From assembly GCF_030013205.1 (NCBI RefSeq), contig NZ_CP122648.1: DNA of 64,000 nucleotides; one strand, 5' to 3'. This DNA is from Escherichia coli. Its GTDB lineage: Bacteria; Pseudomonadota; Gammaproteobacteria; Enterobacterales; Enterobacteriaceae. Below the pieces are notes generated by a model. That model did not search any database, was not told where the DNA came from, and saw only the letters and a program-made list of their open reading frames with translations. A program made the translations under genes and the position numbers. Of the stretch, positions 1,944-40,281 are shown piece by piece. The stretch's first letter is position 1. Every line of letters starts with the position of its first letter.

Positions 1944-3035
1944 ATGCGTTTTCTGCGCCGACCAATATCGCTGCGCCAACGGCTGATATTGACCATTGGG
2001 GCCATTTTGTTGGTGTTTGAGCTGATCAGCGTCTTCTGGCTATGGCATGAAAGTACCGAGCAGATTCAGCTGTTTGAGCAGGCGCTACGCGACAATCGCA
2101 ACAACGATCGCCACATCATGCGTGAGATCCGCGAGGCGGTCGCCAGCCTGATCGTCCCCGGCGTCTTTATGGTCAGCCTGACGCTATTTATCTGCTATCA
2201 GGCGGTACGCCGCATCACCCGCCCGCTGGCGGAGCTGCAAAAAGAGCTGGAAGCGCGCACCGCCGACAACTTAACGCCCATTGCCATTCACAGCGCCACC
2301 CTCGAAATCGAAGCGGTGGTTTCGGCGTTAAACGATCTGGTCAGTCGCCTGACCAACACGCTGGATAACGAAAGGTTGTTTACCGCTGACGTCGCGCACG
2401 AACTGCGAACGCCACTGGCGGGGGTGCGTTTGCATCTGGAACTGCTGGCGAAAACGCATCACATTGATGTAGCACCGTTAGTGGCACGGCTTGATCAGAT
2501 GATGGAGAGCGTCTCCCAGCTGCTGCAACTGGCGCGTGCCGGACAGTCATTTTCTTCCGGTAATTATCAACATGTAAAACTGCTGGAAGATGTCATTCTC
2601 CCCTCGTATGACGAACTCAGTACCATGCTCGACCAGCGACAGCAAACCCTGCTATTGCCAGAGAGCGCCGCCGACATCACCGTTCAGGGTGATGCAACCC
2701 TGCTGCGGATGTTATTGCGAAACCTGGTAGAAAACGCCCATCGTTACAGCCCGCAAGGCAGCAACATTATGATTAAGCTGCAAGAAGATGGCGGAGCGGT
2801 CATGGCTGTTGAAGATGAAGGACCGGGTATTGATGAGAGTAAATGCGGGGAGTTGAGTAAAGCATTTGTACGTATGGACAGCCGTTATGGCGGGATTGGT
2901 CTGGGGTTAAGTATTGTCAGCCGCATTACACAGTTGCATCACGGGCAGTTTTTCCTGCAAAACCGGCAAGAGACTTCCGGCACGCGGGCCTGGGTACGGC
3001 TGAAGAAAGATCAGTACGTGGCAAACCAGATATAA
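1944..3035 (+). CDS. basS: Sensor histidine kinase BasS/PmrB
   Basis: ORF ending at TAA 3033-3035 with H-box (ADVAHELRTPLAG) and ATPase motifs; ATG at 1944 gives 363 aa; an upstream in-frame TTG at 1935 is an alternative start. Confidence 0.9.
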   Translation: MRFLRRPISLRQRLILTIGAILLVFELISVFWLWHESTEQIQLFEQALRDNRNNDRHIMREIREAVASLIVPGVFMVSLTLFICYQAVRRITRPLAELQKELEARTADNLTPIAIHSATLEIEAVVSALNDLVSRLTNTLDNERLFTADVAHELRTPLAGVRLHLELLAKTHHIDVAPLVARLDQMMESVSQLLQLARAGQSFSSGNYQHVKLLEDVILPSYDELSTMLDQRQQTLLLPESAADITVQGDATLLRMLLRNLVENAHRYSPQGSNIMIKLQEDGGAVMAVEDEGPGIDESKCGELSKAFVRMDSRYGGIGLGLSIVSRITQLHHGQFFLQNRQETSGTRAWVRLKKDQYVANQI

Positions 3036-3100
3036 AGAAAGCTGCTGACCACCAGCACGCTGAACACGGTAGTTAAACTTTCATAAACACGGTTTTTCAT
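3011..3100 (-). CDS. pmrR: Small membrane protein PmrR (29 aa), antisense-overlapping basS 3' end
   Basis: Reverse complement of 3011-3100 translates MKNRVYESLTTVFSVLVVSSFLYIWFATY*; GGAGG 8 nt upstream of ATG; not in the supplied ORF track (too short); overlaps last 25 nt of basS on opposite strand. Confidence 0.8.
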   Translation of the reverse strand: MKNRVYESLTTVFSVLVVSSFLYIWFATY

Positions 3101-3104
3101 TGCA

Positions 3105-3130
3105 CTCTCCTCCGTTAACCTGGAGGAGAG
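3105..3130 (-). other. Perfect 9-bp-stem hairpin (ctctcctcc-N8-ggaggagag) containing the pmrR Shine-Dalgarno
   Basis: Inverted repeat read directly from sequence; 3' arm on minus strand includes GGAGG located 8 nt before pmrR ATG; no U-tract follows on either strand. Confidence 0.6.
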
Positions 3131-3144
3131 TATGCGCGTCAGAG

Positions 3145-3161
3145 ATTAAGTGAACCTTAAG
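3145..3161 (-). promoter_or_regulatory. PmrA-box-like direct repeat (CTTAAG-N5-CTTAAT on minus strand) upstream of pmrR
   Basis: Hexamer direct repeat separated by 5 bp matches YTTAAK-N5-YTTAAK PmrA/BasR consensus; lies between proP stop and pmrR start. Confidence 0.55.
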
Positions 3162-3170
3162 ACTTCAATT

Positions 3171-3199
3171 GGCCTGATAAGACAGCGTCACATCAGGCC
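3171..3199. repeat. REP-like palindromic element downstream of proP
   Basis: ggcctgataagacagcgtcacatcaggcc, typical REP palindrome (GCCTGATAAGAC...CATCAGGC). Confidence 0.5.
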
Positions 3200-3211
3200 A
3201 TCCGTTTCAGC

Positions 3212-8081: not shown

Positions 8082-8164
8082 AGAAAATTCTTCCTTAAAG
8101 CAAATTTTGGGTGATGCTGCCAACTTACTGATTTAGTGTATGATGGTGTTTTTGAGGTGCTCCA

Positions 8165-8440
8165 GTGGCTTCTGTTTCTATCAGCTGTCCCTCCTGTTCA
8201 GCTACTGACGGGGTGGTGCGTAACGGCAAAAGCACCGCCGGACATCAGCGCTATCTCTGCTCTCACTGCCGTAAAACATGGCAACTACAGTTCACTTACG
8301 CCGCCTCTCAGCCCGGTACGCACCAGAAAATCATTGATATGGCCATGAATGGCGTCGGATGTCGCGCCAGTGCACGCATTATTGGCGTTGGCCTCAACAC
8401 GATTTTCCGCCACTTAAAAAACTCAGGCCGCAGTCGGTAA
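8165..8440 (+). CDS. insA: IS1 InsA (transposition inhibitor / N-terminal part of transposase)
   Basis: 91-aa [46 protein letters not shown]... (zinc finger plus HTH), a few substitutions relative to the K-12 IS1 InsA I recall. Confidence 0.92.
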
Positions 8441-8862
8441 CCTCGCGCATACAACCGGGCAGTGATGTGATTGTCTGCGCTGAAATGGACGAACAGTGGG
8501 GCTACGTCGGTGCTAAATCACGTCAGCGCTGGCTGTTTTACGCGTATGACAGGATGCGGAGGACGGTTGTGGCGCACGTCTTCGGTGAACGCACTCTGGC
8601 CACACTGGAGCGTCTTCTGAGCCTGCTGTCGGCCTTTGAGGTCGTGGTATGGATGACGGATGGCTGGCCGCTGTATGAATCACGCCTGAAGGGAAAGCTG
8701 CACGTTATCAGCAAGCGTTATACTCAGCGCATTGAGCGGCATAACCTGAATCTGAGACAACATCTGGCAAGGCTGGGACGGAAGTCACTGTCGTTCTCAA
8801 AATCGGTGGAGCTGCATGACAAGGTCATCGGGCATTATCTGAACATAAAACACTATCAGTAA
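8359..8862 (+). CDS. insB: IS1 InsB reading frame (expressed as InsAB' transposase by -1 frameshift at A6C motif)
   Basis: 167-aa ORF in -1 frame relative to insA; ...WPQHDF...[44 protein letters not shown]...; slippery TTAAAAAACTC at ~8414-8424 inside overlap. Confidence 0.88.
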
Positions 8863-9259
8863 GTTGGAGTCATTACCCAAATTTTGTTACTTTTATTTAG
8901 CCAGATTGTTTTTGAGTTCTGTTTTCGGCTTTTATAATTACTGCAAGAAATAATTTTATATTTAGAGTGTTGTTTTTTATTAGAATAAATAACGTCTTCC
9001 GATACGTTTAAAACGTCAGAAAGATAAAAATATCATTTGAATTAAAAAAAGAACAAGTAGAGCATTAACCTTATCTTAAATAATAAATGGAGGCAAAAAG
9101 ATTATTTTCTTTTTGCGTTTCCTTTCAAATGAAAACGATCGTCGTCTAAAATCAGCAGTACCCCCGACAAACTCAGGGATTTTGTGTATAATTGCGGCCT
9201 TTTTCGGCAATCTGCCGTTTTTTGGCGCTTTTGCCCTGCTGACTTTTGAGGAAATCCAC

Positions 9260-9595
9260 ATGTCATTACCACACTGCCCAAAATGCAACTCCGAATACAC
9301 CTACGAAGATAACGGCATGTACATCTGCCCGGAATGTGCCTACGAATGGAACGACGCAGAACCTGCACAGGAAAGCGACGAGCTGATCGTTAAAGATGCT
9401 AACGGCAATCTGCTGGCTGACGGCGACAGCGTTACCATCATTAAAGATCTGAAGGTGAAAGGTAGCTCTTCGATGCTGAAAATTGGCACCAAAGTGAAAA
9501 ACATCCGCCTGGTTGAAGGCGACCATAACATCGATTGCAAAATCGACGGTTTTGGTCCGATGAAACTGAAATCTGAGTTTGTGAAAAAGAACTGA
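9260..9595 (+). CDS. yjdM: Zinc-ribbon protein YjdM (PhnA)
   Basis: 111-aa protein [30 protein letters not shown]... with GAGG 10 nt upstream of ATG 9260; track ORF 9113-9595 is a 5' extension. Confidence 0.9.
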
Positions 9596-9613
9596 TTGTA
9601 TTGTGATCGGTAA

Positions 9614-9689
9614 GCCGGATAAGGCGCTCGCGCCGCATCCGGCAACGATGCCGACTGCCTGATGCGACGCTGACCGCGTCTTATCAGGC
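9614..9689. repeat. Pair of REP elements (BIME-like) between yjdM and yjdN
   Basis: gccggataaggcgctcgcgccgcatccggc and gcctgatgcgacgctgaccgcgtcttatcaggc, canonical REP palindromes in opposite orientation. Confidence 0.65.
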
Positions 9690-9754
9690 TTCCCTCTCAT
9701 CTGTATAAATTTCGAACTACACTTAACTGGCTTCTCTTAACTGAGGTCACCATC

Positions 9755-10198
9755 ATGCCGTTAAGTCCCTACCTCTCTTTTGCCGGTAACTGTGCCGACG
9801 CAATTGCTTATTATCAACGTACGTTGGGCGCTGAACTGATCTATAAAATCAGCTTCGGCGAAATGCCAAAATCAGCGCAGGACAGCGCCGAGAACTGCCC
9901 TTCCGGAATGCAATTTCCCGATACCGCCATCGCCCACGCCAATGTGCGCATTGCCGGAAGCGATATCATGATGAGCGATGCTATACCGTCAGGAAAAGCC
10001 AGCTACTCCGGCTTTACGTTAGTGCTCGATTCGCAACAGGTCGAAGAAGGGAAACGCTGGTTTGACAATCTTGCCGCCAACGGAAAAATCGAAATGGCCT
10101 GGCAGGAAACTTTCTGGGCGCATGGCTTCGGCAAAGTCACCGATAAATTTGGCGTACCGTGGATGATTAATGTCGTCAAACAACAACCAACGCAATAA
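9755..10198 (+). CDS. yjdN: Glyoxalase/VOC-family protein YjdN (PhnB)
   Basis: 147-aa ORF MPLSPYLSFAGNCADAIAYYQRTLGAEL...; position between yjdM and phnC. Confidence 0.88.
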   Translation: MPLSPYLSFAGNCADAIAYYQRTLGAELIYKISFGEMPKSAQDSAENCPSGMQFPDTAIAHANVRIAGSDIMMSDAIPSGKASYSGFTLVLDSQQVEEGKRWFDNLAANGKIEMAWQETFWAHGFGKVTDKFGVPWMINVVKQQPTQ

Positions 10199-12175: not shown

Positions 12176-12196
12176 CCCTCTCCCACAGGGAGAGGG
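12176..12196 (+). other. GC-rich intercistronic hairpin between phnD and phnE
   Basis: ccctctccc-aca-gggagaggg (9-bp perfect stem, 3-nt loop) 16 nt after phnD stop, 25 nt before phnE ATG. Confidence 0.5.
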
Positions 12197-16682: not shown

Positions 16683-17437
16683 ATCAACCGTTACTTTCGG
16701 TCAATAACCTGACCCACCTTTACGCGCCGGGCAAAGGCTTTAGCGATGTCTCTTTTGATTTATGGCCGGGGGAAGTGCTGGGCATCGTCGGGGAATCCGG
16801 CTCCGGGAAGACCACGCTGCTGAAATCAATCTCCGCGCGCCTGACGCCGCAGCAGGGGGAGATTCGCTATGAAAACCGCTCCCTCTATGGCATGAGCGAG
16901 GCCGACCGCCGTCGCCTGCTGCGCACCGAATGGGGCGTGGTGCATCAGCATCCGCTCGACGGCCTGCGCCGCCAGGTGTCGGCAGGCGGCAATATCGGCG
17001 AGCGGCTGATGGCGACCGGGGCGCGTCATTACGGCGATATTCGCGCCACCGCGCAGAAGTGGCTGGAGGAGGTGGAGATTCCCTCCAACCGGATCGACGA
17101 CCTGCCGACCACCTTTTCCGGCGGTATGCAGCAACGTTTGCAGATTGCCCGCAACCTGGTGACGCATCCGAAGCTGGTGTTTATGGACGAGCCAACCGGC
17201 GGGCTGGATGTATCGGTACAGGCGCGCCTGCTCGATCTGCTGCGCGGTCTGGTGGTGGAGCTGAATCTGGCGGTGGTGATTGTCACCCACGATCTGGGCG
17301 TCGCCCGCCTGCTGGCGGACCGTTTGCTGGTGATGAAACAGGGGCAAGTGGTGGAGAGTGGGTTAACCGACCGCGTGCTCGACGACCCGCATCATCCGTA
17401 TACCCAGCTGCTGGTGTCATCGGTTTTGCAGAATTGA
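16679..17437 (+). CDS. phnK: C-P lyase system ATPase PhnK (ABC-type ATP-binding)
   Basis: 252 aa from ATG 16679 ([15 protein letters not shown]...), Walker [10 protein letters not shown]; ATGA overlap with phnJ stop. Confidence 0.93.
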
Positions 17438-17443
17438 GCCAGT

Positions 17444-17528
17444 GCCGGATACGGCGTAAACGCCTTATCCGGCCGACAAATGCGCTCCCCGTAGGTCGGA
17501 TAAGACGCGTCAGCGTCGCATCCGACAC
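17444..17528. repeat. Intra-operonic REP pair (BIME) between phnK and phnL
   Basis: gccggatacggcgtaaacgccttatccggc ... ggtcggataagacgcgtcagcgtcgcatccgacac; two REP palindromes in the 110-bp phnK-phnL gap. Confidence 0.65.
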
Positions 17529-17547: not shown

Positions 17548-18228
17548 ATGATTAACGTACAAAACGTCAGTAAAACCTTCATCCTGCACCAGCAAAACGG
17601 CGTGCGCCTGCACGTCTTACAACGTGCCTCGCTCACCGTCAACGCAGGCGAATGCGTGGTACTCCACGGCCACTCCGGCAGTGGAAAATCAACCCTGCTA
17701 CGCTCGCTGTACGCCAACTATCTGCCCGATGAAGGTCAAATCCAGATCAAACACGGTGATGAGTGGGTAGACCTGATCACCGCGCCAGCCCGCAAAGTGG
17801 TGGAGATCCGCAAAACCACCATCGGCTGGGTGAGCCAGTTTCTGCGCGTCATCCCGCGTATTTCGGCACTGGAAGTGGTGATGCAGCCTCTGCTCGATAC
17901 CGGCGTACCGCGTGAAGCCTGCGCCGCTAAAGCCGCGCGTCTGCTCACCCGCCTGAACGTGCCTGAACGCCTGTGGCACCTGGCACCATCGACCTTCTCC
18001 GGCGGCGAACAGCAGCGCGTCAACATCGCCCGTGGCTTTATCGTCGACTATCCGATTCTGCTGCTCGACGAACCTACCGCCTCGCTGGACGCTAAAAACA
18101 GCGCCGCCGTAGTGGAACTGATCCGCGAAGCCAAAGCCCGCGGCGCGGCCATCGTCGGTATCTTCCATGACGAAGCCGTACGCAATGACGTCGCCGACCG
18201 CCTGCACCCGATGGGAGCCTCTTCATGA
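17548..18228 (+). CDS. phnL: C-P lyase system ATPase PhnL (ABC-type ATP-binding)
   Basis: 226 aa from ATG 17548 ([16 protein letters not shown]...), Walker [21 protein letters not shown]. Confidence 0.93.
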
Positions 18229-20340: not shown

Positions 20341-21099
20341 ATGAGCCTGACCCTCACACTTACTGGCACTGGCGGCGCACAGGGCGTTCCCGCATGGGGC
20401 TGTGAGTGCGTGGCCTGCGTCAGAGCGCGGCGCTCACCGCAGTATCGCCGCCAGCCATGCAGCGGCGTCGTGAAGTTTAACGACGCGATCACCCTGATCG
20501 ACGCCGGGCTGCACGATCTCGCCGATCGCTGGTCGCCCGGATCGTTCCAGCAGTTTTTGCTGACGCACTACCATATGGATCACGTGCAGGGGCTGTTTCC
20601 GCTGCGCTGGGGCGTGGGCGATTCGATCCCGATCTACGGCCCGCCGGATGAACAGGGCTGCGACGATCTGTTTAAACATCCGGGCCTGCTTGATTTCAGC
20701 CACACGATGGAACCGTTTGTGGTGTTTGATTTACAGGGGTTACAGGTCACGCCCCTGCCGCTCAACCACTCAAAACTGACCTTCGGTTATCTGCTGGAAA
20801 CGGCACATAGCCGGGTGGCGTGGCTGTCTGACACCGCAGGCCTACCGGAAAAAACGCTGAAATTTTTACGCAATAATCAACCGCAGGTGATGGTGATTGA
20901 TTGCAGCCACCCACCGCGCGAGGATGCACCGCGTAATCACTGTGATTTAAATACCGTGCTTGCGCTGAATGAAGTTATCCGCTCGCCGCGCGTGGTTCTG
21001 ACCCATATCAGCCATCAGTTTGATGCGTGGCTGATGGAGAACTTACTGCCGTCAGGGTTTGAGGCGGGGTTTGATGGGATGGAGATTGGGGTGGCGTGA
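20341..21099 (+). CDS. phnP: Phosphoribosyl 1,2-cyclic phosphate phosphodiesterase PhnP (metallo-beta-lactamase fold)
   Basis: 252 aa from ATG 20341 ([15 protein letters not shown]...), HYHMDH metal-binding motif; 1 nt after phnO stop. Confidence 0.93.
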
Positions 21100-21126
21100 G
21101 GGAAAATACCCGCGCCGGCCCCTATA

Positions 21127-21456
21127 TCAACGCCCATACTCATCTTCCATTCTCCGCTCTTCATCTTCTAGCTGCCGACGCTCCTGATCAAGCTGGCGCT
21201 GGCGATCGTCCAGCTGCCTGCGGCGATCTTCAAACTGGCGGCGGCGATCGTCATATTGTCTGCGCCGATCGTCGTTCACTTCACGCTGCCAGCCGTCGTC
21301 GCGCGAATCTTCATAGTCTCGCCCACGGTCAGGGTTATAAGCATCGTTAATCGCCTGCTGAATATTGCCAATGGTGTCGTCGATAATATCGGCCTGGGCC
21401 GGAACGGTGGACAGCGTGAGCAGGGTGAATAAAAGAAATAGCGGAAAGCGTTTCAT
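21127..21456 (-). CDS. yjdP: Secreted low-complexity Arg/Asp/Gln-rich protein YjdP
   Basis: 109 aa with signal peptide (MKRFPLFLLFTLLTLSTVPAQA) followed by heptad-like repeats DDRRRQY/DDRRRQF/EDRRRQL...; convergent with phnP. Confidence 0.85.
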   Translation of the reverse strand: MKRFPLFLLFTLLTLSTVPAQADIIDDTIGNIQQAINDAYNPDRGRDYEDSRDDGWQREVNDDRRRQYDDRRRQFEDRRRQLDDRQRQLDQERRQLEDEERRMEDEYGR

Positions 21457-21974: not shown

Positions 21975-22332
21975 TCATCTTCCCCGCCCGCGCAAAAATT
22001 CACAATCAAAAAACATTTGTGATGTAAATGAATTAAAAACACCCAAAATCTATGAAATCCGCCTTCCAGATCTGTTTTACAGAGTTACATCTGACAGCGC
22101 AATAGCGTTAAAGACACTCACTATCCAGCAACATCTATCATCTAATAAACCAGGAAAACAAATAACATAATGTTTTTAAAGTGATTAAATGAAATGAAAT
22201 TTTAAGCCACTCTCCGTTATTCACAACAAAACAAACTTTATAAATTTTATTTTTTTGTGAAGTTGACAGCATCTTTTCTGTTCTTGCTGTGGTGATATAG
22301 TGGCGTCTTCAATTCAAGGACAAGAGAACGTG

Positions 22333-23223
22333 ATGAGCCAGTCAGAGTTTGATTCAGCGCTTCCGAACGGTATCGGGTTAGCGCCTTACCTGCGAATGAA
22401 GCAGGAAGGAATGACAGAAAACGAAAGCCGCATCGTGGAGTGGTTACTCAAACCCGGTAACCTGAGTTGTGCACCCGCAATTAAAGATGTCGCAGAAGCT
22501 CTGGCGGTATCTGAAGCGATGATAGTTAAGGTATCAAAGCTGCTGGGGTTTAGCGGCTTTCGTAACTTACGCAGTGCGCTGGAAGATTATTTTTCTCAGT
22601 CAGAACAGGTATTGCCTTCCGAGTTGGCTTTTGATGAAGCGCCGCAGGATGTGGTGAATAAGGTATTTAACATCACTTTACGCACCATTATGGAAGGTCA
22701 GTCGATCGTCAACGTTGATGAGATCCACCGTGCCGCCCGCTTTTTCTATCAGGCCAGACAGCGGGATTTGTACGGTGCCGGAGGATCAAATGCTATCTGT
22801 GCTGATGTACAGCACAAGTTTTTACGCATTGGCGTACGCTGCCAGGCCTATCCGGACGCTCACATCATGATGATGTCTGCTTCGTTGTTACAGGAAGGAG
22901 ATGTGGTGCTGGTGGTGACCCATTCCGGGCGAACCAGTGATGTAAAAGCGGCTGTAGAACTGGCAAAAAAGAACGGGGCAAAGATTATTTGTATAACGCA
23001 TAGCTACCATTCACCGATAGCGAAGCTGGCCGATTATATTATTTGCTCACCGGCCCCGGAAACACCGTTATTAGGTCGTAATGCCTCGGCAAGAATATTA
23101 CAACTAACTTTGCTGGACGCGTTTTTTGTCTCTGTCGCCCAGCTCAACATTGAACAAGCTAATATTAATATGCAAAAAACCGGCGCAATTGTTGATTTCT
23201 TCTCACCAGGCGCGCTGAAATAA
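22333..23223 (+). CDS. rpiR: RpiR/AlsR transcriptional repressor (HTH + SIS domain)
   Basis: 296 aa from ATG 22333 (MSQSEFDSALPNGIG...); divergent from rpiB across a ~360-bp AT-rich region. Confidence 0.92.
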   Translation: MSQSEFDSALPNGIGLAPYLRMKQEGMTENESRIVEWLLKPGNLSCAPAIKDVAEALAVSEAMIVKVSKLLGFSGFRNLRSALEDYFSQSEQVLPSELAFDEAPQDVVNKVFNITLRTIMEGQSIVNVDEIHRAARFFYQARQRDLYGAGGSNAICADVQHKFLRIGVRCQAYPDAHIMMMSASLLQEGDVVLVVTHSGRTSDVKAAVELAKKNGAKIICITHSYHSPIAKLADYIICSPAPETPLLGRNASARILQLTLLDAFFVSVAQLNIEQANINMQKTGAIVDFFSPGALK

Positions 23224-23281
23224 GAAAAAGGTAATTCCGCCATCGCGGAGTTACCTATACCCTTACCGTGAGAACATGATT

Positions 23282-24217
23282 ATGAATAAATATCTGAAAT
23301 ATTTCAGCGGCACACTCGTGGGCTTAATGTTGTCAACCAGCGCTTTTGCTGCCGCCGAATATGCTGTCGTATTGAAAACACTCTCCAACCCATTTTGGGT
23401 AGATATGAAAAAAGGCATTGAAGATGAAGCAAAAACGCTGGGCGTCAGCGTTGATATTTTTGCCTCTCCTTCAGAAGGCGATTTTCAATCTCAATTGCAG
23501 TTATTTGAAGATCTCAGTAATAAAAATTACAAAGGTATCGCCTTCGCGCCATTATCCTCAGTGAATCTGGTCATGCCTGTCGCCCGCGCATGGAAAAAAG
23601 GCATTTATCTGGTTAATCTCGATGAAAAAATCGACATGGATAATCTGAAAAAAGCTGGCGGCAATGTGGAAGGTTTTGTCACCACCGATAACGTTGCTGT
23701 CGGGGCGAAAGGCGCGTCGTTCATTATTGACAAATTGGGCGCTGAAGGTGGTGAAGTCGCAATCATTGAGGGTAAAGCCGGTAACGCCTCCGGTGAAGCG
23801 CGTCGTAATGGTGCCACCGAAGCCTTCAAAAAAGCAAGCCAGATCAAGCTTGTCGCCAGCCAGCCTGCCGACTGGGACCGTATTAAAGCACTGGATGTCG
23901 CCACTAACGTGTTGCAACGTAATCCGAATATTAAAGCGATCTATTGCGCGAATGACACGATGGCAATGGGTGTTGCTCAGGCAGTCGCAAACGCCGGAAA
24001 AACGGGCAAAGTGTTGGTCGTCGGTACAGATGGAATTCCGGAAGCCCGCAAAATGGTGGAAGCCGGACAAATGACCGCGACGGTTGCCCAGAACCCGGCG
24101 GATATCGGCGCAACGGGTCTGAAGCTGATGGTTGACGCTGAGAAATCCGGCAAGGTTATCCCGCTGGATAAAGCACCGGAATTTAAACTGGTCGATTCAA
24201 TCCTGGTCACTCAATAA
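23282..24217 (+). CDS. alsB: D-allose ABC transporter periplasmic binding protein AlsB
   Basis: 311 aa from ATG 23282 with signal peptide (MNKYLKYFSGTLVGLMLSTSAFA). Confidence 0.93.
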   Translation: MNKYLKYFSGTLVGLMLSTSAFAAAEYAVVLKTLSNPFWVDMKKGIEDEAKTLGVSVDIFASPSEGDFQSQLQLFEDLSNKNYKGIAFAPLSSVNLVMPVARAWKKGIYLVNLDEKIDMDNLKKAGGNVEGFVTTDNVAVGAKGASFIIDKLGAEGGEVAIIEGKAGNASGEARRNGATEAFKKASQIKLVASQPADWDRIKALDVATNVLQRNPNIKAIYCANDTMAMGVAQAVANAGKTGKVLVVGTDGIPEARKMVEAGQMTATVAQNPADIGATGLKLMVDAEKSGKVIPLDKAPEFKLVDSILVTQ

Positions 24218-24228
24218 AACTGAATGAT

Positions 24229-24311
24229 GCCGGATGATGATGCTAATGAAGAGTCTTATCCGGCCAACAAAATAACCTGAACGTAGACCTGATAAGTGTA
24301 GCCCATCAGGC
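24229..24311. repeat. REP-like palindromes between alsB and alsA
   Basis: gccggatgatgatgctaatgaagagtcttatccggcc and gacctgataagtgtagcccatcaggc. Confidence 0.5.
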
Positions 24312-24344
24312 AATAATACGATATTTCGTGCAGAGAGGTTATTT

Positions 24345-25877
24345 ATGGCCACGCCATATATATCGATGGCGGGGATCGGCAAGACCTTTGGTCCGGTTCA
24401 CGCATTAAAGTCGGTTAATTTAACGGTTTATCCTGGTGAAATACATGCATTACTAGGAGAAAATGGCGCGGGTAAATCCACGCTAATGAAAGTTTTATCC
24501 GGAATACATGAGCCGACCAAAGGCACCATTACCATTAATAACATTAACTATAACAAGCTGGATCATAAATTAGCGGCACAACTCGGCATCGGGATTATTT
24601 ATCAAGAACTCAGCGTTATTGATGAATTAACCGTACTGGAAAATTTATATATTGGTCGTCATCTGACGAAAAAAATCTGCGGTGTCAATATTATCGACTG
24701 GCGAGAAATGCGTGTCCGCGCCGCAATGATGTTATTACGCGTGGGCTTGAAAGTTGATTTAGATGAGAAAGTGGCGAATTTATCTATCAGCCACAAGCAG
24801 ATGCTGGAAATTGCCAAAACGCTGATGCTCGATGCCAAAGTCATCATCATGGATGAACCCACCTCCTCACTCACCAATAAAGAGGTGGACTATTTGTTTC
24901 TGATCATGAATCAGTTGCGTAAGGAGGGTACGGCTATCGTCTATATCTCGCATAAATTGGCGGAAATTCGCCGTATTTGCGACCGCTATACGGTGATGAA
25001 AGACGGCAGCAGCGTTTGCAGCGGCATGGTGAGCGATGTGTCAAATGACGATATCGTCCGTCTGATGGTAGGCCGCGAACTGCAAAACCGTTTTAACGCG
25101 ATGAAGGAGAATGTCAGCAACCTTGCGCACGAAACGGTTTTTGAGGTGCGGAACGTCACCAGTCGTGACAGAAAAAAGGTCCGGGATATCTCATTTAGCG
25201 TCTGCCGGGGAGAAATATTAGGCTTTGCCGGACTGGTCGGTTCCGGACGTACTGAACTGATGAACTGCCTGTTTGGCGTTGATAAACGCGCTGGCGGAGA
25301 AATCCGTCTTAATGGCAAAGATATCTCTCCACGTTCTCCCCTGGATGCCGTGAAAAAAGGGATGGCTTACATCACTGAAAGCCGCCGGGATAACGGCTTT
25401 TTCCCCAACTTTTCTATCGCTCAGAACATAGCTATCAGCCGCAGTCTGAAAGACGGCGGCTATAAAGGCGCGATGGGGTTGTTTCATGAAGTTGACGAGC
25501 AACGTACCGCTGAAGCCCAGCGCGAACTGCTGGCGCTGAAATGTCATTCGGTAAACCAGAACATCACTGAACTCTCCGGCGGTAACCAGCAGAAAGTCCT
25601 GATCTCCAAATGGCTGTGCTGTCACCCGGAAGTGATCATTTTCGATGAACCTACCCGTGGCATCGACGTTGGCGCGAAAGCCGAAATTTACAAAGTGATG
25701 CGCCAACTGGCGGACGACGGAAAAGTCATCCTGATGGTGTCATCTGAACTACCTGAAATTATCACCGTCTGCGACCGCATCGCCGTGTTCTGCGAAGGAC
25801 GACTGACGCAAATCCTGACCAATCGCGATGACATGAGCGAAGAGGAGATTATGGCATGGGCTTTACCACACGAGTAA
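24345..25877 (+). CDS. alsA: D-allose ABC transporter ATP-binding protein AlsA (two fused ABC domains)
   Basis: 510 aa with two Walker A / signature motif sets (GENGAGKST; LSGGNQQK). Confidence 0.93.
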   Translation: MATPYISMAGIGKTFGPVHALKSVNLTVYPGEIHALLGENGAGKSTLMKVLSGIHEPTKGTITINNINYNKLDHKLAAQLGIGIIYQELSVIDELTVLENLYIGRHLTKKICGVNIIDWREMRVRAAMMLLRVGLKVDLDEKVANLSISHKQMLEIAKTLMLDAKVIIMDEPTSSLTNKEVDYLFLIMNQLRKEGTAIVYISHKLAEIRRICDRYTVMKDGSSVCSGMVSDVSNDDIVRLMVGRELQNRFNAMKENVSNLAHETVFEVRNVTSRDRKKVRDISFSVCRGEILGFAGLVGSGRTELMNCLFGVDKRAGGEIRLNGKDISPRSPLDAVKKGMAYITESRRDNGFFPNFSIAQNIAISRSLKDGGYKGAMGLFHEVDEQRTAEAQRELLALKCHSVNQNITELSGGNQQKVLISKWLCCHPEVIIFDEPTRGIDVGAKAEIYKVMRQLADDGKVILMVSSELPEIITVCDRIAVFCEGRLTQILTNRDDMSEEEIMAWALPHE

Positions 25878-26836
25878 AAAGCGAAGCGAGCGAGAAGAAA
25901 CCGTTCAACTTTGCGCTGTTCTGGGATAAATACGGCACCTTTTTTATCCTGGCGATCATCGTCGCCATTTTTGGTTCGCTGTCGCCAGAATATTTTCTGA
26001 CCACCAATAATATTACCCAGATTTTTGTGCAAAGCTCCGTGACGGTACTGATCGGCATGGGGGAATTCTTCGCTATCCTGGTCGCCGGTATCGACCTTTC
26101 GGTTGGCGCGATTCTGGCGCTTTCCGGTATGGTGACCGCTAAACTGATGTTGGCAGGTATTGATCCGTTTCTCGCGGCGCTAATTGGCGGTGTACTGGTT
26201 GGCGGCGCACTGGGGGCGATCAACGGCTGCCTGGTCAACTGGACGGGGCTACACCCGTTCATTATCACCCTTGGCACCAACGCTATTTTCCGTGGGATCA
26301 CGCTGGTGATCTCCGATGCCAACTCGGTATACGGCTTCTCATTTGACTTCGTGAACTTCTTTGCCGCCAGCGTAATTGGGATACCTGTCCCCGTTATCTT
26401 CTCGCTAATTGTCGCGCTCATCCTTTGGTTTCTGACAACGCGTATGCGGCTCGGCCGCAACATCTACGCACTGGGCGGCAACAAAAACTCGGCGTTCTAT
26501 TCCGGGATTGACGTGAAATTCCACATCCTGGTGGTGTTTATCATCTCCGGTGTTTGTGCAGGTCTGGCAGGCGTCGTCTCAACTGCACGACTCGGTGCCG
26601 CAGAACCGCTTGCCGGTATGGGGTTTGAAACCTATGCCATTGCCAGCGCCATCATTGGCGGCACCAGTTTCTTCGGCGGCAAGGGGCGCATTTTCTCTGT
26701 GGTGATTGGCGGGTTGATCATCGGCACCATCAACAACGGTCTGAATATTTTGCAGGTACAAACCTATTACCAACTGGTGGTGATGGGCGGATTAATTATC
26801 GCGGCTGTCGCCCTTGACCGTCTTATCAGTAAGTAA
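25856..26836 (+). CDS. alsC: D-allose ABC transporter permease AlsC
   Basis: 326 aa polytopic membrane ORF overlapping alsA 3' end. Confidence 0.93.
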   Translation: MGFTTRVKSEASEKKPFNFALFWDKYGTFFILAIIVAIFGSLSPEYFLTTNNITQIFVQSSVTVLIGMGEFFAILVAGIDLSVGAILALSGMVTAKLMLAGIDPFLAALIGGVLVGGALGAINGCLVNWTGLHPFIITLGTNAIFRGITLVISDANSVYGFSFDFVNFFAASVIGIPVPVIFSLIVALILWFLTTRMRLGRNIYALGGNKNSAFYSGIDVKFHILVVFIISGVCAGLAGVVSTARLGAAEPLAGMGFETYAIASAIIGGTSFFGGKGRIFSVVIGGLIIGTINNGLNILQVQTYYQLVVMGGLIIAAVALDRLISK

Positions 26837-26846
26837 GGAATTAAAC

Positions 26847-28455
<1,609 letters not shown>

Positions 28456-35958: not shown

Positions 35959-38106
35959 ATGAAAAAAGTCGTCACGGTTTGCCCCTATTGCGCATCAGGT
36001 TGCAAAATCAACCTGGTCGTCGATAACGGCAAAATCGTCCGGGCGGAGGCAGCGCAGGGGAAAACCAACCAGGGTACCCTGTGTCTGAAGGGTTATTATG
36101 GCTGGGACTTCATTAACGATACCCAGATCCTGACCCCGCGCCTGAAAACCCCCATGATCCGTCGCCAGCGTGGCGGCAAACTCGAACCTGTTTCCTGGGA
36201 TGAGGCACTGAATTACGTTGCCGAGCGCCTGAGCGCCATCAAAGAGAAGTACGGTCCGGATGCCATCCAGACGACCGGCTCCTCGCGTGGTACGGGTAAC
36301 GAAACCAACTATGTAATGCAAAAATTTGCGCGCGCCGTTATTGGTACCAATAACGTTGACTGCTGCGCTCGTGTCTGACACGGCCCATCGGTTGCAGGTC
36401 TGCACCAATCGGTCGGTAATGGCGCAATGAGCAATGCTATTAACGAAATTGATAATACCGATTTAGTGTTCGTTTTCGGGTACAACCCGGCGGATTCCCA
36501 CCCAATCGTGGCGAATCACGTAATTAACGCTAAACGTAACGGGGCGAAAATTATCGTCTGCGATCCGCGCAAAATTGAAACCGCGCGCATTGCTGACATG
36601 CACATTGCACTGAAAAACGGCTCGAACATCGCGCTGTTGAATGCGATGGGCCATGTCATTATTGAAGAAAATTTGTACGACAAAGCGTTCGTCGCTTCCC
36701 GTACAGAAGGCTTTGAAGAGTATCGTAAAATCGTTGAAGGCTACACGCCGGAGTCGGTTGAAGATATCACCGGCGTCAGCGCCAGTGAGATTCGTCAGGC
36801 GGCACGGATGTATGCCCAGGCGAAAAGCGCCGCCATCCTGTGGGGCATGGGTGTAACCCAGTTCTACCAGGGCGTGGAAACCGTGCGTTCTCTGACCAGC
36901 CTCGCGATGCTGACCGGTAACCTCGGTAAGCCGCATGCGGGTGTAAACCCGGTTCGTGGTCAGAACAACGTGCAGGGTGCCTGCGATATGGGCGCGCTGC
37001 CGGATACGTATCCGGGATACCAGTACGTGAAAGATCCGGCTAACCGCGAGAAATTCGCCAAAGCCTGGGGCGTGGAAAGCCTGCCTGCTCATACCGGTTA
37101 TCGCATCAGCGAGCTGCCGCACCGCGCAGCGCATGGTGAAGTGCGTGCCGCGTACATTATGGGCGAAGATCCGCTGCAAACTGACGCGGAACTGTCGGCA
37201 GTACGTAAAGCCTTTGAAGATCTGGAACTGGTTATCGTTCAGGACATCTTTATGACCAAAACCGCGTCGGCGGCGGATGTCATTTTACCGTCAACGTCAT
37301 GGGGCGAGCATGAAGGCGTGTTTACTGCGGCTGACCGTGGCTTCCAGCGTTTCTTCAAAGCGGTTGAACCGAAGTGGGATCTGAAAACGGACTGGCAGAT
37401 TATCAGTGAAATCGCCACCCGTATGGGTTATCCGATGCACTACAACAACACCCAGGAGATCTGGGATGAGTTGCGTCATCTGTGCCCGGATTTCTACGGT
37501 GCGACTTACGAAAAAATGGGCGAACTGGGCTTCATTCAGTGGCCTTGCCGCGATACTTCAGATGCCGATCAGGGGACTTCTTATCTGTTTAAAGAGAAGT
37601 TTGATACCCCGAACGGTCTGGCGCAGTTCTTCACCTGCGACTGGGTAGCGCCAATCGACAAACTCACCGACGAGTACCCGATGGTACTGTCAACGGTGCG
37701 TGAAGTTGGTCACTACTCTTGCCGTTCGATGACCGGTAACTGTGCAGCACTGGCGGCGCTGGCTGATGAACCTGGCTACGCACAAATCAATACCGAAGAC
37801 GCCAAACGTCTGGGTATTGAAGATGAGGCATTGGTTTGGGTGCACTCGCGTAAAGGCAAAATTATCACCCGTGCGCAGGTCAGCGATCGTCCGAACAAAG
37901 GGGCGATTTATATGACCTACCAGTGGTGGATTGGTGCCTGTAACGAGCTGGTTACCGAAAACTTAAGCCCGATTACGAAAACGCCGGAATACAAATACTG
38001 CGCCGTGCGCGTCGAGCCGATCGCCGATCAGCGCGCCGCCGAGCAGTACGTGATTGACGAGTACAACAAGTTGAAAACTCGCCTGCGCGAAGCGGCACTG
38101 GCGTAA
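35959..38106 (+). CDS. fdhF: Formate dehydrogenase H (FDH-H), selenocysteine-containing molybdoenzyme; in-frame TGA at 36376-36378 decoded as Sec140
   Basis: Track ORFs 35959-36378 and 36427-38106 are in the same frame, separated only by one TGA; combined 715-aa protein has N-terminal 4Fe-4S Cys motif (CPYCASGC) and ...VDCCARV-U-HGPSVAGLHQSVGNGAMSN...; SECIS hairpin immediately 3' of the TGA. Confidence 0.93.
36379..36425 (+). other. SECIS (selenocysteine insertion sequence) stem-loop within fdhF mRNA
   Basis: cacggcccatcggttgcaggtctgcaccaatcggtcggtaatggcg directly after the UGA; contains the GGUUGCAGGUCUGCACC apical stem-loop recognised by SelB. Confidence 0.85.
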
Positions 38107-38199: not shown

Positions 38200-38889
38200 A
38201 TGAAAAAAATTATCGCATTGATGTTGTTTTTAACATTCTTTGCCCACGCGAACGACTCCGAGCCTGGCAGCCAGTATTTAAAGGCAGCAGAGGCCGGGGA
38301 CCGACGCGCACAATATTTTCTTGCCGACAGCTGGTTTAGCTCCGGCGATTTGAGCAAAGCCGAATATTGGGCACAGAAAGCCGCCGACAGCGGTGATGCT
38401 GATGCCTGCGCGCTGCTGGCGCAGATCAAAATCACCAATCCGGTCAGTCTGGACTATCCACAAGCAAAAGTTCTTGCAGAGAAAGCGGCGCAAGCGGGGA
38501 GTAAAGAAGGTGAAGTAACGCTGGCGCATATTCTGGTAAATACGCAAGCGGGTAAACCGGATTATCCAAAGGCGATTTCGCTGTTAGAAAACGCTTCGGA
38601 AGATCTGGAGAACGACTCTGCCGTCGATGCCCAAATGCTGCTTGGTTTGATTTACGCCAACGGCGTGGGCATTAAGGCCGACGATGACAAGGCAACCTGG
38701 TATTTCAAACGCAGCTCTGCGATTTCCCGAACCGGTTATTCCGAGTACTGGGCGGGAATGATGTTCTTAAACGGTGAAGAAGGTTTTATCGAGAAGAACA
38801 AGCAAAAGGCGCTGCACTGGTTGAATCTGAGCTGTATGGAAGGGTTTGATACCGGGTGTGAAGAGTTTGAAAAATTAACTAACGGTTAA
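38200..38889 (+). CDS. yjcO: Sel1/TPR-like repeat lipoprotein/periplasmic protein YjcO
   Basis: 229 aa, signal peptide, repeated ...A..G...A...L..A...G motif (Sel1-like). Confidence 0.85.
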   Translation: MKKIIALMLFLTFFAHANDSEPGSQYLKAAEAGDRRAQYFLADSWFSSGDLSKAEYWAQKAADSGDADACALLAQIKITNPVSLDYPQAKVLAEKAAQAGSKEGEVTLAHILVNTQAGKPDYPKAISLLENASEDLENDSAVDAQMLLGLIYANGVGIKADDDKATWYFKRSSAISRTGYSEYWAGMMFLNGEEGFIEKNKQKALHWLNLSCMEGFDTGCEEFEKLTNG

Positions 38890-38893
38890 GGTA

Positions 38894-38961
38894 GGCCTGA
38901 TAAGACGCGTTAAGCGTCGCATCAGGCATCCACACATTGCCGGGTGGATATCCCCGGCAAT
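38894..38961. repeat. REP element plus adjacent small hairpin between yjcO and gltP (convergent gene ends)
   Basis: ggcctgataagacgcgttaagcgtcgcatcaggc then ttgccgggtggatatccccggcaa. Confidence 0.55.
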
Positions 38962-38967
38962 CTTCAA

Positions 38968-40281
38968 TTATTGATCCGCAGTTTTATCAAATTTGCCCAG
39001 CACTTCGCGCTCATAAGCCAGCGCTTTCTTACGGTCAAATTTGTGTTCCCACTTGGCAATCACCAGCACCGCCAGCGCATTACCCACCACGTTCAGCGCA
39101 GTACGCGCCATGTCGAGGATACGGTCAACACCGGCAATAAACGCCAGACCTTCCAGCGGGATCCCTACGCTGCCCAGCGTTGCCAGCAACACCACAAACG
39201 ACACGCCCGGCACGCCAGCAATCCCTTTCGAAGTCACCATCAGCGTCAGCACCAGAATGATTTCCTGCCAGATGGACAGGTCAATGCCATACAACTGCGC
39301 GATGAAGATAGCGGCAATACTTTGATACAGCGTCGAACCATCAAGGTTAAAAGAGTAACCGGTCGGCACCACGAAACTGGTGATCGACGCCGGTGCTCCG
39401 TAGGCTTCCATCTTCTCAATAATTCGCGGCAGCACGCTTTCAGAACTGGCAGTGGAGTACGCCAGAATCAGCTCATCTTTCAGAATACGAATCAGGATCC
39501 AGACGCTTAACCCGCACAGGCGCGCCACAATTCCCAGCACGACCAGCGCGAAGAACAGAATGGCGAAATGCACCAGCAGCACCAGTTTCGCCAGTGGCCA
39601 CAGAGACGAGAAACCAAAGTTAGCCACCGTCACCGCAATCAGCGCAAACACACCCACCGGCGCATAACGCATCACCATGTGAGTCACTTTAAACATGGTT
39701 TCAGAGATGGAGCGGAACACGGTCACCAGCGGTTCACGATGCGTCGCGGGCAGGGAGGAAAGCCCCAGACCAAACAGCACCGAGAAGAAGATGATCGGCA
39801 GCATTTCGCCTTTCGCCATCGACGCCACAATGTTCGTCGGCACCAGCGACAAAATCGTGCCCATAATGCCGTGGGAACTGCTTTGTACCGCTTCCGTCGT
39901 GCTCTGATATTTCGAGATATCGACGGTCGCCAGCTGCGACATATCCACCCCGGCACCGGGCTGGAAGACGTTCGCCAGAGTGATCCCCAAAATGATGGCG
40001 ACGGTGGTGATCACCTCGAAGTAAATAATGGTTTTCGCGCCAATACGCCCGAGCTGTTTGGCATCACCAACACCCGCGATACCCACCACCAGCGTGGAGA
40101 TCACAATCGGCACAACAATCATTTTGATCAGATGGATGAAGATATCACCCGCCGGAGAGAGCAAATTGACGACCAGCCAGTCGCGGCTGTCGCTATGGTA
40201 GTGCAGGTAGCTTCCCAGGAGAATGCCCAGCACCATAGCAAACAGAATCTGCCAGGCCAGGCTGAATTTTATATTTTTCAT
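38968..40281 (-). CDS. gltP: Glutamate/aspartate:proton symporter GltP (DAACS family)
   Basis: 437 aa MKNIKFSLAWQILFAMVLGILLG...; dicarboxylate/amino acid:cation symporter motifs. Confidence 0.95.
   Translation of the reverse strand: MKNIKFSLAWQILFAMVLGILLGSYLHYHSDSRDWLVVNLLSPAGDIFIHLIKMIVVPIVISTLVVGIAGVGDAKQLGRIGAKTIIYFEVITTVAIILGITLANVFQPGAGVDMSQLATVDISKYQSTTEAVQSSSHGIMGTILSLVPTNIVASMAKGEMLPIIFFSVLFGLGLSSLPATHREPLVTVFRSISETMFKVTHMVMRYAPVGVFALIAVTVANFGFSSLWPLAKLVLLVHFAILFFALVVLGIVARLCGLSVWILIRILKDELILAYSTASSESVLPRIIEKMEAYGAPASITSFVVPTGYSFNLDGSTLYQSIAAIFIAQLYGIDLSIWQEIILVLTLMVTSKGIAGVPGVSFVVLLATLGSVGIPLEGLAFIAGVDRILDMARTALNVVGNALAVLVIAKWEHKFDRKKALAYEREVLGKFDKTADQ

Follow-up and report, generated by a model that had tools for sequence, protein, structure and literature searches.

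What is the role of the palindromic repeat at positions 9614-9689, located between yjdM and yjdN, and do this repeat and its relatives nearby mark the boundaries of operons? These questions were addressed using a DNA stretch of 64,000 nucleotides (hereafter the window), a segment of the Escherichia coli chromosome that corresponds to the reverse complement of K-12 MG1655 at about 4.27-4.335 Mb. Gene names and coordinates follow the PGAP annotation of K_EC180 (NZ_CP062203.1), a nearly identical strain with 0 mismatches and 31 gap positions against the window over 64 kb. The repeat is preceded by yjdM (phnA; 9260-9595, plus strand), of which the TGA stop codon is located 18 nt before the REP core, and followed by yjdN (phnB; 9755-10198, plus strand), of which the start is located 65 nt past the REP pair. 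After the analysis described below, we consider it likely that the repeat is a one-unit REP325 BIME within the yjdM-yjdN operon, of which the hairpins protect the yjdM message and dampen yjdN.

For the systematic annotation of REP elements, the window was scanned for the core motif CC[GT]GAT..ATC[AC]GG, using first-order Markov simulations as the null, and an nhmmer profile made from 27 REP seeds was run over the same sequence. The motif was found 10 times against 0.3 expected under the Markov null, and 8 of the 10 matches fall at the six sites that a sequence-only reading of this DNA had listed. The other two (20644-20683 and 37000-37039; 40 nt each) lie inside phnP and fdhF without profile support, and were set aside as chance matches. 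The profile identified nine REP units (E=8.6e-11 to 9.6e-6), all within the six listed loci and essentially at the coordinates proposed for them; no further match below E=1e-3 was found in the whole window, the next best being at E=0.76. The list had missed no REP locus, its flanking gene names agree with the PGAP annotation, and the identification as REP and BIME was right; three inverted pairs are BIMEs [9610-9646(+)/9654-9691(-), 17441-17477(-)/17491-17524(+) and 24226-24268(-)/24283-24315(+)].

All nine units are outside annotated coding sequences and start 4-18 nt past a stop codon, the gap being 6 nt at phnK, 11 nt at alsB, 9 nt at acs, 4 nt at yjcO and 12 nt at proP; the gap of 18 nt between yjdM and the REP core is thus longer than the 4-12 nt at the other five sites. 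At each site the RNA from the transcribed strand is more stable than shuffled controls (z -3.3 to -7.5). Among 16 units compared, the sequence classes (CCGG, CCTG, TCGG and inner-stem variants) differ by double pair-preserving changes only, with double compensatory changes between classes at 4 of 9 stem pairs and one-sided changes at 0 of 9, although the copies do not represent independent events. A REP is an imperfect palindrome whose hairpin contains an internal mismatch. Its consensus is about 35 nt long, GTAG-GCC[G/T]GATAAG..CGCATC[C/A]GGC, in which GTAG provides the context for recognition and cleavage by RAYT. This tetranucleotide precedes four of the nine units. The yjdM-yjdN pair carries GTAA in place of the canonical GTAG at its Y unit, for which ST131 has GTAG, and GGAA at its Z unit; no rayT gene is present in the window.

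The sequence-only reading took the REP elements as marks of operon boundaries throughout the window. This proved wrong at four of the six sites (yjdM|yjdN, phnK|phnL, alsB|alsA and acs|yjcH), all of which are inside operons; transcription-unit ends are found only at the 3' end of proP and between the convergent yjcO and gltP. The same reading had correctly placed the als and acs copies inside operons, between alsB and alsA and between acs and yjcH in the annotation, and had proposed from them that a REP after the first gene adjusts the stoichiometry between that gene and those downstream. In its operon phnK comes ninth rather than first, and the REP pair behind it counts against the first-gene idea. 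The stoichiometry idea itself is not new, being the original REP hypothesis of the 1980s, reportedly formulated by Higgins in 1982 and by Newbury in 1987. Opposite to this idea, five of the six REPs, with gaps of 4-12 nt, are of the kind for which a reduced translation of the upstream gene has been reported. The upstream bias associated with REP is a genome-wide tendency, for which K-12 REP325 is the directly shown case.

Judged from its sequence, the element between yjdM and yjdN is an inverted Y+Z REP pair and a one-unit allele of K-12 REP325, and its RNA is the one catalogued as naRNA4. The Y-type unit (9610-9646, plus strand; nhmmer E=3.4e-9), with the core GCCGGATAAGGCGCTCGCGCCGCATCCGGC at 9614-9643, has the same sequence as the first Y unit of K-12 REP325 and gives the first hairpin (-23.9 kcal/mol alone). 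After a linker of 13 nt between the two cores (9644-9656, plus strand; read as AACGATGCCGACT), the inverted Z-type unit (9654-9691, minus strand; E=4.4e-9), with its core at 9657-9689, gives the second hairpin (-21.8 kcal/mol alone); a Z unit of this type was named Z2 by Qian 2015. The Rfam model of naRNA4 (RF02564) matches 9613-9690 on the plus strand over its full length (model positions 1-77 of 77) with 87.5 bits against the gathering score of 59.5 (E=2.9e-14), while the opposite strand gives only 50.5 bits. This identity was missing from the earlier reading, as was the ERIC-like repeat in the acs-yjcH spacer described below. The K-12 REP325 is flanked by the same genes with identical left and right junctions, but its 657-bp spacer contains six units (5.8 tandem copies of a 100-bp unit with the order Y-linker-Z-'U' motif), compared with one unit in the 159-bp spacer of the window. 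BIME-1 elements carry a long L linker with an IHF site between Y and Z1. Since the 13-nt linker is too short for the IHF-binding L motif of about 34 bp, the BIME-1 subtype was rejected for this element.

The RNA of the element has a minimum free energy of -50.6 kcal/mol (z=-5.4) as one long Y:Z hairpin, and the two-hairpin form, at -45.7 to -47.8 kcal/mol, is computed to be the first to form on the growing transcript. Scanning of the spacer (9596-9754) gave no intrinsic terminator-like site, the hairpin being followed by CUUCCCUCUCAUCUG with no U tract, and no promoter-like site, so that yjdN most likely depends on read-through from yjdM. The best sigma-70-like promoter for the yjdM-REP-yjdN transcript was found at 9164-9192 (plus strand; CCGACA-17-TATAAT, 10 of 12 consensus matches), which, coming from a consensus scan alone, is to be taken as a candidate and not as functional evidence. 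By the same kind of consensus scan, a terminator-like hairpin followed by TTTTTT was noted at 9205-9227 (plus strand), between this candidate and the yjdM start at 9260, and it could be a leader attenuator. The divergent crfC-yjdM spacer also contains an IS1 of 768 bp (8110-8877) with terminal inverted repeats, absent from K-12 and flanked by the 9-bp target-site duplication CAAATTTTG at 8101-8109 and 8878-8886. Its insertion point lies some 28 bp before the crfC/rdcA start codon, so that crfC may have been cut off from its promoter.

The function of REP325 has been described for K-12 with its six units (Harris 2026 preprint). Deletion of the array shifts the yjdM/yjdN ratio from 35.3 to 1.02, with an increase of yjdN by about 8-10-fold and a decrease of yjdM by about 3-fold, and the six-unit array was described as stabilising mRNA and as an attenuator that depends partly on Rho (Harris 2026 preprint). 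In the same preprint, Rho dependence was not detectable for fragments of one unit (naRNA4) and two units, and the stabilisation of yjdM was strongly dependent on context, with terminal REPs showing no genome-wide gain in half-life. For tandem gene pairs genome-wide, the reported median log upstream/downstream value is 0.96 with REP against -0.09 for random pairs.

The prediction of the sequence-only reading that transcript 3' ends should be enriched at the REP sites found little support, and only two Rho termination regions speak for it. One, from an independent K-12 BCM dataset, is located at 4325847 (minus strand), within the last REP325 unit at the end of its sixth Y hairpin (Rho score 5.4), and another K-12 Rho termination region is at 4296545 (plus strand), just past the yjcO-gltP array. 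K-12 Term-seq gave no curated 3' end in the queried 100-nt bins at the orthologous REP sites, REP325 included; these bins covered all REP sites apart from the inner part of the yjcO-gltP array in K-12 (42959xx-42963xx). This negative result is weak evidence because phn and als are uninduced in those media and repeat reads map poorly; at REP325 it is limited by the weak expression of yjdM together with the poor mapping of reads from near-identical repeats. The acs gene is clearly expressed in these Term-seq data, with a strong internal 3' end.

The number of units in the yjdM-yjdN spacer was determined for 59 genomes; these were picked at regular intervals from the 5,431 matching records in rank order, and the sample carries the sampling bias of RefSeq. 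One unit was found in 36 genomes, two units in 5 (O157:H7 among them), four units in 5, five units in 4 and six units in 8 (K-12 among them), with an odd length in 1; in this sample the single unit accounts for about 60%, the six-unit K-12 allele for about 14%, and multi-unit alleles for 39%. Between strains, the alleles have the same junctions on the left and on the right and vary by whole units; the divergent strain E200086 has a two-unit form without the second Y, a loss that took place between CATCC repeats. A search for the Z-U-Y junction gave a class of at least 95% identity in 2244 of 5426 genomes (41%), which serves only as a rough check of the value of 39%. A multi-unit census of the whole collection by this junction was abandoned as confounded (90.9% identity class in 1567 records), because the junction is also present at other BIME arrays.

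Since the unit number varies between 1 and 6 among strains, any function that is sensitive to dosage is not conserved. It is conceivable, and we propose it only tentatively, that the REP325 unit number (1, 2, 4, 5 or 6) is a heritable natural rheostat on the yjdM:yjdN ratio, with the single unit acting as a stabiliser only. If so, the Rho-dependent behaviour in K-12 would not apply to the approximately 60% of E. coli with a single unit, the partly Rho-dependent terminator behaviour of the six-unit allele being that of a minority and thus not transferable to single-unit strains, and the yjcO-gltP array, with 1 unit here and 11 in K-12, would be open to the same reading.

Over the same region the window contains 9 REP units and K-12 contains 32, and the REP content differs at four of seven sites, with length polymorphism in unit number at yjdM-yjdN, yjcO-gltP and acs-yjcH and presence/absence variation at phnD-phnE. 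At yjcO-gltP, the window carries one REP against 11 in K-12, where the array is probably EcoCyc REP321a-k as judged from the unit count; the single form was found in 26 of 59 genomes, the others being longer by 69 to 749 bp or larger. At acs-yjcH, one REP plus the ERIC-like repeat in the window corresponds to two REPs in K-12, with at least 8 length classes and the window type in 4 of 59 genomes. At phnD-phnE, no REP is present in the window against two in K-12, the window type being found in 8 of 39 sampled genomes. The phnK-phnL and alsB-alsA spacers contain two REPs in both strains and are the same in length in 35 of 39 sampled genomes and in 39 of 39 sampled als-carrying genomes, respectively. 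The REP-bearing spacers are the main sites of structural difference between the window strain and K-12: they occupy 1.2% of the window, yet include three of the six structural breaks relative to K-12, or four if the K-12-only phnD-phnE pair is counted.

Several observations accompany this comparison. Right after phnD, the window contains a perfect 9-bp hairpin (12176-12196; CCCTCTCCC-ACA-GGGAGAGGG) where about 80% of the sampled genomes, and K-12, carry a REP pair, so that two unrelated hairpins share one spot past the binding-protein gene. Between the convergent genes phnP and yjdP there are 27 bp in the window (21100-21127) and 146 bp in K-12 (4314197-4314344), with no REP in the additional K-12 sequence. 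Of 5426 complete E. coli genomes, 3387 contain the alsB-alsA segment, and the als operon (22300-28455 in the window) is probably limited to these; strain 042 lacks the als operon and is identical to the window at the yjdM locus. Megablast detected rayT in 3575 of the 5426 E. coli genomes, the matches falling into three bands of identity (at least 99%, 95-99% and 90-95%). Among the carriers are 042 and 2017C-4173W12, two strains with the same sequence as the window at the yjdM-yjdN element.

Four other explanations of the element were weighed against this evidence. If the element is the gene for naRNA4, a nucleoid RNA that together with HU bridges cruciform REP DNA and condenses the chromosome (Qian 2015), the full-length Rfam match above the gathering score is as expected, and so are the nucleoid decondensation after REP325 deletion, its rescue by naRNA4 (Qian 2015) and the binding of naRNA4 to HU in vitro with a Kd of about 32 nM, a binding that has been confirmed. 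Harris 2026, however, found no stable complex of HU, cruciform DNA and naRNA4, no REP-REP contacts in Hi-C, only about 1-2 copies of naRNA4 per cell, and a nucleoid size unchanged on either deletion or overexpression, the nucleoid effects of 2015 not being reproduced; a unit number of 1-6 among E. coli, with about 60% having one, is also a poor fit to a conserved architectural dosage, and we regard this role as very improbable. The idea that REPs are transcription terminators at operon ends agrees with the two transcription-unit ends, at proP and at yjcO/gltP, and with the Rho termination regions in or just past two large K-12 arrays. It is nevertheless improbable in view of the intra-operon location of the other four sites, the hairpin at yjdM-yjdN having no U tract in a spacer with no terminator-like site on scanning, the lack of Rho dependence of one- and two-unit REP325 fragments, and the location of the proP-strand 3' end of K-12 (4332116) about 70 nt beyond the REP at another hairpin.

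An effect on translation was also considered. In the rule for stop-proximal REPs that others ascribe to Liang, Rudd and Deutscher 2015, ribosomes terminating at a stop codon are stalled by a REP hairpin that begins within 15 nt of it; the mRNA is then cleaved and less of the upstream protein is made. The gaps of 6, 11, 9, 4 and 12 nt at phnK, alsB, acs, yjcO and proP are all within this limit, and REP321 and REP325 were counted within it by a preprint. For the element in question this explanation is unlikely, for the gap of 18 nt to the core is outside the limit, becoming borderline only with the outer pairs of the long hairpin, and the deletion of REP325 lowered yjdM mRNA instead of raising it. 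There remains the view of REPs as selfish or neutral REPINs mobilised by RAYT, tolerated after stop codons and affecting expression as a by-product. It draws on a REP content that differs from K-12 at four of seven sites, with 9 units against 32, the unit-number polymorphism at yjdM-yjdN, yjcO-gltP and acs-yjcH with the variable presence at phnD-phnE, the concentration of three of six, or four, structural differences in 1.2% of the window, the degenerate state of the als pair, and the presence of rayT in 3575 of 5426 genomes, among them strains that match the window exactly at this element. It is possible but rather doubtful, given the large local expression effect and the growth phenotype of the K-12 REP325 deletion, the fixed length of the phnK-phnL and alsB-alsA pairs across the species samples, and the perfect 9-bp hairpin at the same spot in genomes without phnD-phnE REPs, which hints that a hairpin is retained there. 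This view is compatible with the explanation that we prefer and does not exclude it.

The preferred explanation, that of hairpins protecting the upstream message inside an operon, may be outlined as follows. The element would be co-transcribed from the yjdM promoter, and its RNA is predicted by computation to fold first into two stable hairpins, or alternatively into one long Y:Z hairpin. These hairpins would then block 3'-to-5' exonucleases, and the yjdM segment would outlast the yjdN segment; weak attenuation of read-through may add to this effect, giving more yjdM than yjdN product. The experiments behind this step were made on the six-unit K-12 allele, and we infer the same for the single unit of the window. 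Rho-dependent termination is expected to be weak or absent with a single unit. For the window allele, the lack of Rho dependence of one- and two-unit fragments favours the stabiliser role, which appears to be the better-supported inference, and makes the terminator role doubtful. At the DNA level, the elements may be regarded as RAYT-associated repeats, of which the number changes by whole units between strains.

The other five sites are ordinary REPs in 3' untranslated regions or intercistronic spacers, to which the same context-dependent hairpin logic would apply. Past the end of proP (3212, minus strand), a single degenerate Z-type REP (3169-3201, plus strand; E=4.8e-8) follows the stop codon by 12 nt, and on the minus strand its RNA forms a hairpin of -20 kcal/mol (z=-4.1). 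On the window, the 3' end published for K-12 (4332116) corresponds to about position 3100, after a different hairpin just before the pmrR start, and thus the 3' end of the proP strand is about 70 nt beyond the REP and not at it. Directly downstream of this REP, a full-length match to Rfam STnc630 (3004-3169, minus strand; 181 bits) overlaps the small ORF pmrR. Two other expected known RNA elements were detected in the window, the fdhF SECIS_2 (36371-36425, plus strand; 87 bits) and the sRNA sraL/ryjA (56721-56861, plus strand; 153 bits).

Between phnK (ending at 17437) and phnL (beginning at 17548), the REP pair at 17441-17528 (plus strand) consists of a Y unit [17441-17477(-); E=9e-9] and a GTCGGAT-variant unit [17491-17524(+); E=1.4e-6], with the phnK stop 6 nt upstream and the phnL start 19 nt downstream, and is predicted to fold at -44.6 kcal/mol (z=-4.8). 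The pair between alsB (ending at 24217) and alsA (beginning at 24345) is degenerate (24226-24315, plus strand), being made of a degenerate unit [24226-24268(-); E=4.7e-7] and a short one [24283-24315(+); E=9.6e-6], with the alsB stop 11 nt upstream and the alsA start 33 nt downstream; its fold is weak (-24.7 kcal/mol, z=-3.3). Between yjcO (ending at 38889) and the convergent gltP (ending at 38968), the palindrome had been assigned to 38894-38961. This range includes one canonical Z REP (38891-38931, plus strand; E=8.6e-11), with the yjcO stop 4 nt upstream, and its remainder is a non-REP hairpin of 9 bp at 38937-38961 (TTGCCGGGT..CCCCGGCAA), 6 nt past the gltP stop, which folds but has no profile match.

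Past acs (ending at 49349), a single Y REP (49356-49393, minus strand; E=7.7e-10) lies 9 nt from the stop codon and forms a hairpin of -20.4 kcal/mol, with the start of yjcH (49575) 184 nt further on. The spacer between this REP and yjcH contains an ERIC-like dispersed repeat of about 130 bp (49434-49567, plus strand), predicted to form a long RNA hairpin (-69.6 kcal/mol, z=-8.3). Its assignment is based on its behaviour as a dispersed repeat, on a sub-threshold match to Rfam V_AS5 (44 bits), and also on what we take to be the ERIC consensus. The repeat is found at a median of 4 places per E. coli genome with about 77% identity, and at acs-yjcH in 335 of 5426 genomes; a search for the ERIC2 primer sequence gave no match within 3 mismatches.

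Both the yjdM-yjdN element and the REP family are already known, and no new kind of feature is involved. What is mildly new is that the unit number is a species-wide polymorphism, in which the six-unit K-12 allele is atypical: the "model REP" of K-12 is an expanded minority allele, and the common form is a single pair, for which the Rho component is undetected. This point and the concentration of structural differences in REP-bearing spacers matter whenever arguments on REP325 or on operon stoichiometry are extrapolated from K-12 to other E. coli.

Among known systems, the element resembles most directly K-12 REP325/naRNA4, with which it shares the orthologous yjdM-yjdN spacer, identical junctions and the same unit of Y, 13 nt and Z; it differs in having 2 hairpins in a 159-bp spacer against 12 in 657 bp, and in lacking the 21-nt inter-unit 'U' motif, the published Rho dependence being confined to the full array. 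Intercistronic REPs of the malE-malF type are proposed to shield the upstream segment from 3' exonucleases. The malE-malF and hisJ-hisQ stabilisers are resembled by the hairpins right after a binding-protein or first gene, as at alsB|alsA here and phnD|phnE in K-12, but the als pair is degenerate and folds only weakly (-24.7 kcal/mol), and at the als, phn and acs sites such protection is a proposed one. BIME-2 elements, in the classification of Bachellier and Gilson, are tandem alternating Y and Z2 units, for which gyrase binding has been described. The alternating inverted Y and Z units, short linkers and variable tandem copy number agree with this type, except that the array in the window is reduced to a minimal single pair. 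The element is also similar to REPINs, which are mobilised by RAYT (TnpA-REP, rayT/yafM), in being a doublet of inverted REPs that can fold into a single long hairpin, in a species carrying rayT; it differs from them in its flanking GTAA and GGAA in place of GTAG, and in that its copy number changes by gain or loss of whole tandem units at a fixed site, changes that look like recombination or slippage rather than transposition.
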